From NCBI RefSeq assembly GCF_003334815.1, contig NZ_QOWO01000091.1: 1,859 nt of DNA, one strand, 5' to 3'. The stretch is from Escherichia coli (GTDB lineage Bacteria > Pseudomonadota > Gammaproteobacteria > Enterobacterales > Enterobacteriaceae). Positions 703 through 1,430 of the stretch are shown here, in pieces. The notes beneath the pieces were generated by a model. It had not been told where the DNA came from, ran no database searches, and saw only the letters and a program-made list of their open reading frames with translations. Position numbers and translations under genes: made by a program. Every line of letters starts with the position of its first letter. Within the stretch, counting starts at the first letter, position 1.

Positions 703-708
703 TTTACT

Positions 709-726
709 CCCCCGCTCCGGCGGGGG
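709..726 (+). other. GC-only hairpin 7 nt after the ardA stop; possible 3' stabilising stem-loop or weak terminator
   Basis: CCCCCGC (709..715) pairs perfectly with GCGGGGG (720..726) around loop TCCG: a 7-bp all-G:C stem. It is followed by TATGGCC, not a T-tract, so it is not a canonical intrinsic terminator. Confidence 0.3.
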
Positions 727-730
727 TATG

Positions 731-762
731 GCCTGCCAGGCCGCCGGAAAACCCTGGCAGGC
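731..762. repeat. Perfect 10-bp inverted repeat with 12-nt spacer
   Basis: GCCTGCCAGG (731..740) and CCTGGCAGGC (753..762) are exact reverse complements, separated by CCGCCGGAAAAC. Confidence 0.7.
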
Positions 763-943
763 TTACGCCTGCCTGAAATGCAGGAGGGCCGCGCCTGCGG
801 CGCTGCCCTTCCTGCCCGTCATGGTGTGAGGCATTTTTCTGTTATGTCGTTTCTGTTGTTCTGATTTCCGGAGGCGGGGACACCTTCGGCTCCCGGCTGC
901 CTGGCGGCATCCGGTCGTCAGGCCCGACTCCGACAGGCAGCTG

Positions 944-989
944 CTGGCGCACCCGCCAGTCTCCGCCGAACCCGCTGGCGCGGTTTCGG
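944..989. repeat. Two adjacent GC-rich hairpins
   Basis: CTGGCG (944..949) pairs with CGCCAG (954..959) around loop CACC. CCGAA (966..970) pairs with TTCGG (985..989), with an inner stem CCGC (972..975) / GCGG (980..983) and loop TGGC; one mismatch at 971/984. Confidence 0.55.
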
Positions 990-1029
990 GCTGCCGCTAC
1001 GGTCCGATGTCTGAAAAACCAGGCTTGCA

Positions 1030-1123
1030 GCGACCGTTCCGGTCGCGCCGCCCCTGTCGCGCCGGAAACGGCGCTCCCTGCACACCTGACGGTGTGTAAG
1101 GCCACTGCGCCTGATGGCGCAGT
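1030..1123. repeat. Tandem array of four perfect short hairpins
   Basis: Checked base by base: 1030..1036/1040..1046 (7 bp, loop TTC); 1059..1064/1069..1074 (6 bp, loop GAAA); 1081..1086/1091..1096 (6 bp, loop TGAC); 1104..1111/1116..1123 (8 bp, loop TGAT). Four consecutive stem-loops within 94 nt. Confidence 0.7.
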
Positions 1124-1229
1124 CAACCCTTCCGCCGCCACCCCTGCGGCCTGTTTCCCGCTGTGGACTTTCCGGGGGCTGGAGTAACCACATCCCGTTT
1201 CAGCAGTCCAGGGGAAGATATACCGTCCA

Positions 1230-1265
1230 CAAAATTTTTAGCCATAAACCCGGCAAAAAATTTTG
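1230..1265. repeat. AT-rich 10-bp inverted repeat embedded in GC-rich DNA
   Basis: CAAAATTTTT (1230..1239) is the exact reverse complement of AAAAATTTTG (1256..1265), with a 16-nt spacer AGCCATAAACCCGGCA. It is the only A/T-rich island in the spacer. Confidence 0.6.
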
Positions 1266-1416
1266 CGTCCGCCCCCGGACAGCTGCCCCGTGACGTGGTG
1301 ACGGACGCCCCATCGGAAAGGTCCACTGCGGGGAGAAACCCCGAAGAAGTGGACGGCAGAAGGGGCTTTCGCCCCTCCGGGGAGCAACCGGTCGGCCCGG
1401 CGACCTGATTCAGCAG

Positions 1417-1422
1417 AAGGAG
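1417..1422 (+). promoter_or_regulatory. Shine-Dalgarno site of downstream ORF
   Basis: AAGGAG at 1417..1422, 8 nt upstream of the ATG at 1431. Confidence 0.6.
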
Positions 1423-1430
1423 ACGTTTTC

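Follow-up and report, generated by a model that had tools for sequence, protein, structure and literature searches.

The spacer downstream of ardA in the leading region of an IncI1 plasmid is composite and holds ssi2 together with a separate conserved structured module

The spacer and its flanking genes

The window, which is the whole 1,859 bp stretch of Escherichia coli DNA that was analysed, matches IncI-gamma/K1 plasmids at 100% and is part of the leading region of an IncI1/I-gamma plasmid. It contains the ardA coding sequence (202..702, plus strand, with the stop codon at 700-702), recognised from its ORF and translation and annotated as antirestriction protein ArdA in CP057908 and NZ_CP043828, which marks the end of the upstream operon. 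A class 2 ssDNA promoter (ssp2, or 'Frpo3') is located upstream of ardA in window 1-200. Downstream of ardA there is a 728 bp spacer (703-1430), followed by the first gene of the ssi2 operon (1431..1859, plus strand; 144 aa), which is truncated by the end of the window and is annotated in the IncI locus L001 at 10431-10865. A Shine-Dalgarno sequence, AAGGAG (1417..1422, plus strand), can be read 8 nt before the ATG of this gene. Pfam and NCBIfam searches with the ORF 1431 protein gave zero matches, and the protein matches phrog_1987 (unknown function) with an E value of 1e-20. The gene order in CP057908 is ssb-psiB-psiA-ardA-spacer-ORF ... nikA/nikB, with one strand used throughout and directed towards oriT, and the minus strand of the window is therefore the transferred template strand.

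Composition and folding of the spacer

The sequence-only reading, made from the letters of the window without database searches, had singled out the spacer as GC-rich and dense in hairpins, and this description holds well. Its coordinates are correct (ardA ends at 702 and the next ATG is at 1431), its GC content is 0.647 compared with 0.554 for ardA (the downstream ORF is at 0.585), and all twelve of the listed stem-loops fold on both strands with DNA folding energies of -3.1 to -12.6 kcal/mol. When hairpins are restricted to perfect ones (stem of at least 6, loop of 3-12), the spacer has nine, compared with 2.3 +/- 1.4 in 500 dinucleotide shuffles, none of which reached nine or more (0/500). 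The whole spacer folds as ssDNA with energies far better than those of shuffled controls, at -218.7 kcal/mol for the minus strand (z -9.3) and -198.9 kcal/mol for the plus strand (z -10.1). For the interval 1040-1400 the values are -113 kcal/mol for the minus strand (z -8.85, with 0/100 shuffles equally good) and -98.3 kcal/mol for the plus strand (z -5.7). Because the plus strand too folds far better than its shuffles, the acting strand cannot be selected by folding energy alone.

The spacer is composite, with ssi2 accounting for ~326 of the 728 bp and the remainder holding at least one separate conserved module. Directly 3' of the ardA stop codon are the hairpins of Segment A (703..790), with stems at 709-726 and 731-762 and alternative pairings at 756-773 and 769-785. 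Positions 731-777 are ~85% identical to the end of the operon upstream of ssb in both IncI (L001 3361-3415) and F (L003 5861-5908). Segment A has no T-run and is thus not a canonical intrinsic terminator, and a terminator scan of 703-1430 returned no terminator-like site on the plus strand. Segment B (791..880) is a context-specific linker that is missing from the ssb-upstream paralog and has the lowest GC content among the spacer segments (0.578); it begins with a hairpin at 791-803, which is followed by a pyrimidine-rich tract on the plus strand at ~835-866 (purine-rich on the transferred strand). Similar GA-rich tracts on the transferred strand come after the conserved module (module C, 874..1016, see below) in F, Klebsiella and several Pantoea copies. 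Between module C and ssi2 is a conserved flank of the class 1 promoter (1017..1053, minus strand) with the hairpin GCGACCGGAACGGTCGC at 1030-1046, which was confirmed by folding, and the flanks of Frpo2 and Frpo1 in F (L003 6175-6242 and 11562-11631) share 86-87% identity with the interval 1013-1082.

The core of the spacer is ssi2

The interval 1054..1379 on the minus strand is ssi2, a class 1 (Frpo-type) ssDNA promoter and priming element of ColIb-P9-type plasmids, and 325 of its 326 bases are identical to AJ238399.1:4353-4678, the sole mismatch being a G for T at window 1092. The reference is the element listed at these coordinates as 'ColIb P-9 Frpo2' in Supplementary file 4 of Samuel et al. 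2024; the ColIb-P9 element is on the same strand and at the same site between ardA and the next operon, and its published unit of 326-328 nt excludes 703-1053. In our window ssi2 ends 52 nt upstream of ORF 1431 in the leading region, and the template of the ORF is the transferred strand. The earlier proposal that the spacer is a candidate Frpo/ssi-type element serving ORF 1431, or a single-strand priming site, is thereby supported, with the correction that the element takes up only the ~326 bp at 1054-1379. The three outcomes named beforehand as refuting it were checked and each spoke for it, since folding is better than in shuffled controls, the stems keep pairing through compensatory changes and the spacer ORFs have no NCBIfam match. 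This element is already in the literature (PMC12672017; PMC11541004), and nothing is new in ssi2 itself. There are three dispersed paralogs in the IncI locus (upstream of ssb, of ORF 1431, and of a DUF4942 gene), and ssi2 is ~82% identical to ssi1 and ~87% (86.9%) identical to ssi3. Earlier work on ssi elements is reportedly that of Bates in 1999 and Nasim in 2004.

The minimum free energy structure and its pair map predict that 1133..1358 (minus strand) forms a long imperfect hairpin of ~84 pairs, with a 5' arm running from 1358 to 1252 and a 3' arm from 1243 to 1133. At its tip is an A/T-rich apical stem-loop (1230-1265, minus strand), and a 9-nt bulge, GGTATATCT, is predicted at 1224-1216 on the same strand. 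The separate local hairpins that had been listed within 1133-1358 are all present, but the listing omitted that they are parts of this one long structure. Compensatory changes are found in 22 of the 81 predicted pairs across nine homologs from IncI, F, Klebsiella, Serratia and a metagenome, a small set in which alignment of the lower stem between IncI-type and F-type elements is poor. In all nine class 1 homologs the complement is the less stable strand, with a mean advantage of 13 kcal/mol for the transferred strand.

Alignment to the F and ColIb-P9 elements, which the sequence-only reading had suggested as a check, gives near-identity to ssi2 and conserved blocks common to F Frpo1 (ssiD) and Frpo2. 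Like ssi2, both F elements are long imperfect hairpins of the transferred strand upstream of leading-region genes, and they have in common with it the A/T-rich tip, the invariant TGTCCGGGG and CCCCTGGAC blocks and the GCGACCGGAACGGTCGC flank. However, identity of 76-87% is confined to short blocks, and the F elements have a different lower stem and exceed ssi2 by ~70 nt in length. Among the IncI, F, Serratia and metagenome homologs the CCCCTGGAC and TGTCCGGGG blocks are nearly invariant.

Promoter-like boxes can be placed tentatively on the hairpin. We infer that TGGACT (1205..1210, minus strand), which is in the 3' arm and pairs with the CTGTCCGGGG block (1272-1281), acts as the -35 of ssi2; the core positions of the CTGTCCGGGG block are invariant in the nine homologs. 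The A/T-rich apical stem upstream of this hexamer would then be in the position of an UP element. A putative weak extended -10, TG-G-TTACTC (1182..1190, minus strand), is placed 17 nt after the -35-like hexamer, and in the pair map the 1182-1190 zone contains G.T pairs, one mismatch and a 4x4 internal loop. From the homolog alignment, a conserved TGGAC(T/A) box and, 17 nt on, a putative TG-n plus weak hexamer within the mismatched zone can be proposed. The box assignment is weak, with 4/6 and 2/6 consensus matches plus the TG, and linear scans for canonical TTGACA-N17-TATAAT found none on either strand of the window or on the transferred strand of the nine class 1 homologs. From the position of the putative -10, the start site would be near window 1310-1316 on the plus strand.

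Promoters of this class have been studied directly in related plasmids. In the IncI1 plasmid pESBL, ssi1-3 are class 1 ssDNA promoters whose operons show up to ~500-fold early induction in recipients at 15 min by RNA-seq, and whose start sites have been mapped by 5' RACE; the RNA-seq data resolve six separate induced operons (PMC12672017). Deletion of Frpo1 or Frpo2 abolishes early expression in the F plasmid (PMC9849209). Frpo transcripts prime strand conversion in vivo, and complementary-strand synthesis can stall at a hairpin promoter (bioRxiv 2026.01.09.698686). The F Frpo RNA is described as a primer in vitro in the account of Masai and Arai 1997 given in PMC9849209.

A conserved structured module upstream of ssi2

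The value of the spacer is in its anatomy outside ssi2. Module C is a conserved structured module of ~130-140 nt (874..1016, minus or transferred strand) that is found by covariance model R1 with 111.8 bits and an E value of 9e-23. It is upstream of ssi2 in the gene sense, and thus 3' of it on the transferred strand. Module C is separate from ssi2 and is predicted to form a four-way junction, in which a closing stem P0 (TCGGACCG / CGGGCCTGA) and a short stem P1a are accompanied by the hairpins P1 (966-989) and P2 (944-959). After the junction come another hairpin, P3, and the conserved motif GAGCCGAAGG, all on the minus strand. The motifs GGCGGAGC, GACGAC and GAGCCGAAGG are invariant and unpaired. 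In the IncI variant, 896-941 also self-pairs as an inverted repeat (896-914/923-941).

Evidence for the predicted pairing comes from 42 copies of the module. In these, 97.4% of cells are paired, double changes are seen in 13 of the 26 pairs, and the observed values were reached in none of 500 shuffles; shifted pairings fall to 22-52%. There are 952 Watson-Crick pair cells compared with 10 G.T and 9 A.C, and an attempt to choose the strand from the wobble pairs failed on these last two numbers. The strand was judged instead by the difference in folding energy between the strands, which favours the transferred strand in 36 of 38 copies. The transferred strand carries all 42 copies. Those compared with annotation are without exception in spacers between leading-region genes, and most copies are found between the end of one operon and the GC-rich hairpin flank that precedes the next.

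Module C recurs in thousands of enterobacterial plasmids, including IncI, IncF (with KPC-carrying members), IncL/M (pOXA-48-like) and others, and as many as nine copies were found in a single retrieved leading region. A scan of genome contigs with the pattern CGGCGGAG..GACGAC..GAGCCGRAG proved too loose, and most of the 120 loci it returned are chance matches in high-GC Actinobacteria and similar genomes, none of which received a score from the covariance model; the true contig matches are in Klebsiella, Citrobacter, Pluralibacter, Mixta and Candidatus Pantoea only. Copies are lacking upstream of both ssi1 and the class 2 promoter, and none can be recognised upstream of the Frpo elements of F, so module C is not required for promoter activity. 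The window copy and the copy upstream of ssi3 are 97.6% identical, while the ssi elements beside them are only 86.9% identical.

We compared module C with several known classes of structured element. The whole window has no Rfam match at E values up to 1, four Pantoea copies gave nothing relevant at the same limit, and a search of L001, L005 and L007 at the gathering score found only sok and AS-pc01, which are elsewhere in these loci. A full-text literature search with module C sequence strings found only an unrelated mouse primer, and none of the papers searched describes the module. A tRNA-like cloverleaf was considered and rejected, as ARAGORN finds no tRNA or tmRNA in L001, L005 or L007. 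An sRNA gene was also rejected, since by inspection many copies have a TTGACC on their 5' side on the transferred strand and no -10 at a sensible spacing. The STAXI motif (RF01728) is alike in being a conserved structured element of the Enterobacterales near ssb and antirestriction genes with suspected action as ssDNA. However, its published description is of a tandemly repeated pseudoknot with UUCG loops, an architecture that differs from that of module C, and neither the window nor the four Pantoea copies match it at E values up to 1.

Proposed working of the spacer

The spacer is very probably a composite regulatory region that acts on the transferred single (minus) strand, with ssi2 at 1054-1379 as its core. 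On entry of the strand into a recipient, 1133-1358 would snap into the long imperfect hairpin, and its stem would imitate a double-stranded sigma-70 promoter with an UP-like A/T-rich tip, a -35-like box and a mismatched -10 zone. Host RNA polymerase could then bind the hairpin, much as it binds a promoter-like hairpin in the M13-type origin, and transcribe the transferred strand towards oriT, so that ORF 1431 and its operon would be expressed before a complementary strand exists. The same RNA could prime complementary-strand synthesis, and formation of the duplex would remove the hairpin and silence the promoter. This scheme is taken over from the family, with single-strand-dependent transcription and start sites coming from the literature and the exact boxes and start site being our own placement. 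To it the present analysis contributes the identity, location and orientation of ssi2, its strand-biased stability and the conservation of its stem.

The role of module C in this arrangement is a guess, and the likeliest one is that of a stable structural barrier or insulator, which the incoming complementary-strand replisome would meet just before it flattens the promoter. Stalling of complementary-strand synthesis at a leading-region hairpin has a published precedent in ssp2, which precedes ardB/klcA in F and ardA in IncI1; however, its sequence and fold are unrelated to those of ssi2 and module C, and it is the promoter hairpin itself that forms the barrier. The conserved unpaired motifs of module C point to specific recognition, and a passive barrier would not account for this. 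We put forward, tentatively, that module C represents an undescribed family of structured ssDNA elements in leading regions, a cis-acting device that may be recognised by a host or plasmid factor. The family would be defined by a four-way junction of ~130 nt with the unpaired invariant motifs CATCAGAC, TAGC, GGCGGAGC, GACGAC and GAGCCGRAGG.

Alternative explanations

It is possible, though we think it rather unlikely, that module C or the whole spacer is a single-strand initiation site recruiting a primase or primosome (DnaG, PriA, or a plasmid primase such as Sog) to begin complementary-strand synthesis, and not a barrier. The ssi elements were first defined through priming, Frpo RNA primes DNA synthesis, and as a compact multi-hairpin ssDNA with conserved unpaired motifs module C resembles classic priming signals; with one copy in each operon spacer, its dispersed arrangement would be suited to discontinuous synthesis. 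The complementary-strand origins of ssDNA phages (M13, G4 of the DnaG type, phiX174 of the PriA type) and the sso of rolling-circle plasmids are likewise folded ssDNA signals read by host enzymes. However, the G4, phiX174 and M13 origins have no similarity to module C in sequence or structure, and with filters off, model R1 scored the three phage genomes at 7.3 bits at best (E 0.75), a partial match. The module C alignment also has no invariant CTG beside a hairpin, and a primer made at module C would at once create duplex and silence the adjacent promoter.

The region from ardA to ssi2 might alternatively end the upstream transcript, with the pyrimidine tract as a site of Rho loading on the plus-sense RNA and the hairpins, whether in the RNA or in the template strand, pausing or stopping RNA polymerase, thereby insulating the ardA and ssi2 operons. 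This would account for the hairpins directly after the ardA stop codon, the conservation of 731-777 at another operon end in IncI and F, and the C/T-rich, G-poor tracts that separate the operon end from module C on the plus strand of the window, F, Klebsiella and several Pantoea copies. It would also fit the scan that found no intrinsic terminator and the six separately induced operons in the published RNA-seq (PMC12672017). We nonetheless consider it unlikely, as there are almost no G.U pairs among 988 cells, although an RNA structure under selection would not usually lack them, and the more stable sense is the transferred strand and not the mRNA. Moreover, the junction between the ssb operon and ardA has no module C, and a pause site would not need sequence conservation as high as 97-100%.

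It is improbable that this DNA, rich in hairpins, is a dispersed repeat of a selfish or neutral kind, spread and homogenised by recombination among plasmids and with no function beyond ssi2. Plasmids carry many copies each, no copy can be recognised in F, and the near-identity of module C between paralogs and across IncI/IncFII backbones suggests recent gene conversion or exchange. A neutral repeat would not, however, be expected to keep a four-way junction over ~75-100% sequence identity, with 13 of 26 pairs surviving double substitutions where shifted pairings reach 22-52%, or to have its strand fixed in 42/42 copies and its position between operons in every annotation-checked copy. A decayed or unrecognised protein-coding gene can be dismissed with near certainty: although RefSeq/GenBank records carry a minus-strand hypothetical protein at window 842-1126/1141 and, in the paralogous copy, another ORF on the plus strand, these are on opposite strands and in different frames with no spacer ORF conserved, homolog indels are not multiples of three, an NCBIfam search with the spacer ORFs gave zero matches and thus no detectable protein homolog, and conservation tracks base pairing, not codons.

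Implications for plasmid establishment

The case of ssi2 illustrates that a tool-free reading of raw sequence is able to recognise a single-strand promoter. If module C is indeed a family of recognised ssDNA devices, it could set how long the promoter remains single-stranded, as a replisome barrier resolved by a helicase; alternatively, it could set where complementary-strand synthesis starts or stops. Recent work shows that the timing of strand conversion around leading-region promoters is actively tuned, and these promoters determine whether a resistance plasmid expresses its anti-restriction and SOS-inhibition genes early enough to become established in a new host. In pOXA-48-like, KPC-carrying IncF and IncI plasmids module C stands next to such promoters, which makes it a candidate part of the timing mechanism that can be deleted, and if it is not a timing device it would be an unrecognised priming or termination signal.

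The spacer downstream of ardA

The spacer (703-1430) between ardA (202-702) and the next ORF, which encodes 144 aa and starts at 1431 with AAGGAG before it at 1417-1422, is 728 bp long and has a GC content of 64.7%, compared with 55.4% in ardA. A sequence-only reading had described it as a long, GC-rich and hairpin-dense region that was a candidate for an Frpo/ssi-type element serving the ORF at 1431 or for a single-strand priming site, and both the observation and its interpretation are correct. All twelve of the hairpins listed are real, there are nine perfect hairpins compared with 2.3 ± 1.4 in dinucleotide shuffles (with none of 500 shuffles as high), and folding as ssDNA is well below shuffled controls for both the minus (z -9.3) and plus (z -10.1) strands. 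The 144-aa ORF (1431-1859) matches no Pfam or NCBIfam family, its sole family match is to phrog_1987 (function unknown), and some records call it 'post-segregation killing protein PndC'. 'Hypothetical proteins' are annotated inside the spacer (842-1141, minus strand) and, on the opposite strand, in its paralog in the IncI plasmid locus L001 (3409-3723, plus strand); these are probably artefacts of gene calling in structured DNA of high GC content.

DNA identical to the 1859-bp window is present in IncI-gamma/K1 and IncI1 plasmids of E. coli, Salmonella and Shigella, and at least 5000 PLSDB records match parts of it. The gene order in CP057908 is ssb, DUF905, parB-like, psiB, psiA, a hypothetical gene, ardA, the spacer and the 144-aa ORF, followed by several more genes, a DUF4942 gene, mobC and nikA/nikB. 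From ssb to the DUF4942 gene, by way of ardA and the 144-aa ORF, the leading-region genes lie on one strand and are directed toward oriT/nikA. The transferred strand goes from oriT into the recipient 5' end first, and the transferred strand is therefore the minus strand of the window. This is the template strand for the leading-region genes from ssb to the DUF4942 gene, an arrangement reported for ColIb-P9 and for leading regions generally (PMC11541004).

The spacer consists of more than one element. Segment A (703-790) contains hairpins directly after the ardA stop codon, and part of it (731-777) is found again at another operon end in both IncI and F; a terminator scan found no T-run in this segment. 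Segment B (791-880) is specific to its context and rich in pyrimidines on the plus strand, and there are GA-rich tracts on the transferred strand in the same relative place in F, Klebsiella and several Pantoea copies. We note that these tracts (835-866 in the window, ~5950-6060 in the F locus L003, and in the flanks of plasmid loci L007 and L005) share a position, with an operon end on one side and module C (in F, its counterpart) on the other, and recur in sequence contexts that are unrelated; they could be Rho loading sites or stretches kept free of structure. Segment C (about 874-1053) includes module C and is followed by ssi2.

To the left of ardA, positions 1-200 belong to a class 2 ssDNA promoter (ssp2 / 'Frpo3' type) that runs on past the left edge, and also resemble the Samuel et al. 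candidate 'Frpo' 4'. This segment is 96% identical both to L001 2054-2248, upstream of the second antirestriction gene of the same plasmid, and to L003 4554-4748, upstream of ardB/klcA in F. Positions 113-166 are the inverted partner of sequence just beyond the left edge, and the window thus cuts the promoter hairpin.

The ssi2 promoter

By local BLAST, the spacer is repeated within the plasmid locus: 731-1377 is ~83% identical to DNA upstream of ssb, and 1056-1381 has ~82% identity with the stretch preceding the DUF4942 gene. Among the known Frpo/ssi sequences tabulated by Samuel et al. (2024, Supplementary file 4), 'ColIb P-9 Frpo2' (AJ238399.1:4353-4678) matches the minus strand of 1054-1379 at every base but one (1092). 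This segment is therefore ssi2, a class 1 promoter, and because the predicted element is already known the finding itself is not novel. It is one of the three dispersed ~328 bp repeats described for ColIb-P9.

The 1040-1400 region folds to -113 kcal/mol (z -8.85) on the minus strand and -98.3 kcal/mol (z -5.7) on the plus strand. The minus strand forms a long imperfect hairpin of ~84 pairs (5' arm 1358 to 1252, 3' arm 1243 to 1133) with an A/T-rich tip (1230-1265) and a 9-nt bulge (1224-1216), and there are small hairpins to its 3' side (1104-1123, 1081-1096 and 1059-1074) and 5' side (1361-1376). We aligned nine class 1 elements: ssi2 and its paralogs ssi1 and ssi3, Frpo1 and Frpo2 of F, one element each from Serratia and a metagenome, and two copies from Klebsiella IncFII plasmids. 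The alignment bears out the conservation of the stems: compensatory double changes occur in 22 of the 81 consensus pairs, and on the transferred strand many G.T pairs are conserved. That strand is stabler than its complement in all nine, by a mean of 13 kcal/mol.

Linear consensus scans (both strands of the window, and the transferred strand of the class 1 homologs) found no canonical promoter. From conservation we propose, with modest confidence, a -35-like TGGACT (1210-1205) paired with the CTGTCCGGGG block, which has an invariant core. We would likewise place a weak extended -10, TG-G-TTACTC, at 1190-1182, within a zone of mismatches, and a putative start site near 1310-1316; the A/T-rich tip appears to sit where an UP element would. 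The promoter function of ssi2 is taken from published work. A study of the IncI1 plasmid pESBL reports that six leading-region operons are induced ~500-fold at most within 15 min, and that its class 1 promoters are ssi1-3, with start sites mapped by 5' RACE (PMC12672017). In vivo, transcripts from Frpo elements act as primers for strand conversion as well (bioRxiv 2026.01.09.698686).

A conserved structured module adjoining ssi2

Module C (874-1016, minus strand) is widely distributed. A covariance model built from a 23-copy MAFFT alignment identifies 42 copies (E ≤ 3.5e-16), all in enterobacterial plasmid loci (L001, L004-L009, L017, L024, L071, L087-L090 and L100): the window copy, L001 3530-3673 and 40 others. 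It had no hit in F or in the more than 80 loci of other phyla that matched a sequence pattern by chance. The IncI form is present in at least 5000 PLSDB records, and related sequence at the end of the Samuel et al. candidate 'Frpo* 4' occurs at 12,613 places in 4715 PLSDB plasmids, including pOXA-48-like IncL/M plasmids, with hosts that include Klebsiella, Enterobacter, Serratia, Pantoea, Yersinia and Erwinia. In annotated loci, every copy is on the transferred strand and occupies a spacer between leading-region genes, after one operon ends and before the next begins, and a spacer usually holds a single copy. There are nine in a single Pantoea plasmid and five in an IncFIB/FII plasmid of Klebsiella. 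A Klebsiella IncFII plasmid has segment C at 96.5% identity, ahead of an F-type Frpo. Positions 881-1053 are 97.6% identical to the copy upstream of ssi3 (L001 3541-3709), whereas the adjacent ssi elements are 86.9% identical, which points to either recent gene conversion limited to the module or much stronger constraint upon it.

The RNAalifold consensus of the 23-copy alignment has 27 pairs, 13 with compensatory changes, and is a four-way junction with a closing stem P0, a short P1a, hairpins P1 and P2, then hairpin P3, and a conserved GAGCCGRAGG motif. Among 38 distinct copies fitted to the covariance model, 97.4% of the pair cells are paired and 105 have double changes; none of 500 shuffles match these values, shifted pairings give 22-52%, and the independent MAFFT alignment gives the same pairs. 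The pairs are almost purely Watson-Crick (952, versus 10 G.T and 9 A.C) and the transferred strand is the stabler in 36 of the 38 copies, and we therefore favour a DNA-level structure on the transferred strand rather than an RNA.

One module C copy in L004 (NZ_CP028796.1, ~11500-14000) has the GAGCCGAAG motif at its 3' edge, and directly after this motif comes the GTGCG 5' end of a group II intron (ltrA 11736-13403, same sense as the transferred strand), which suggests that the intron targets the structured site. Many copies in L005, L007, L008, L017 and L024 carry GTTGACC on the transferred strand, ~8-10 nt ahead of CATCAGAC, where the module starts, and no -10 follows it in these flanks; the window copy lacks GTTGACC. 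In one case, a perfect DnaA box (TTATCCACA; L005 ~33766-33774) directly follows the ninth Pantoea copy, upstream of ssb.

Possible roles of module C

No Rfam family matches module C, and it is not a STAXI, a tRNA-like element (ARAGORN) or a coding sequence, nor does it resemble the G4, phiX174 or M13 complementary-strand origins. No description was present in the papers searched, and a full-text search did not find its sequence strings. The module is dispensable for promoter activity as such, because it is absent from ssi1, from the F Frpo elements and from the class 2 promoter.

Complementary-strand synthesis runs 3' to 5' along the transferred strand, and thus meets module C just before the promoter hairpin. 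In F, a leading-region hairpin (ssp2) stalls this synthesis and prolongs promoter activity, with release requiring UvrD (bioRxiv 2026.01.09.698686). By analogy, our preferred although tentative reading is that module C may be a barrier or insulator. It is rather unlikely that it is instead a priming signal. A signal for termination or insulation of the upstream transcript is somewhat less probable again. Recognition sites of other kinds account for the remaining probability, and we consider a neutral repeat improbable. The invariant unpaired motifs of module C argue for specific recognition by some factor. Module C is the part of the spacer that deserves to be followed up.
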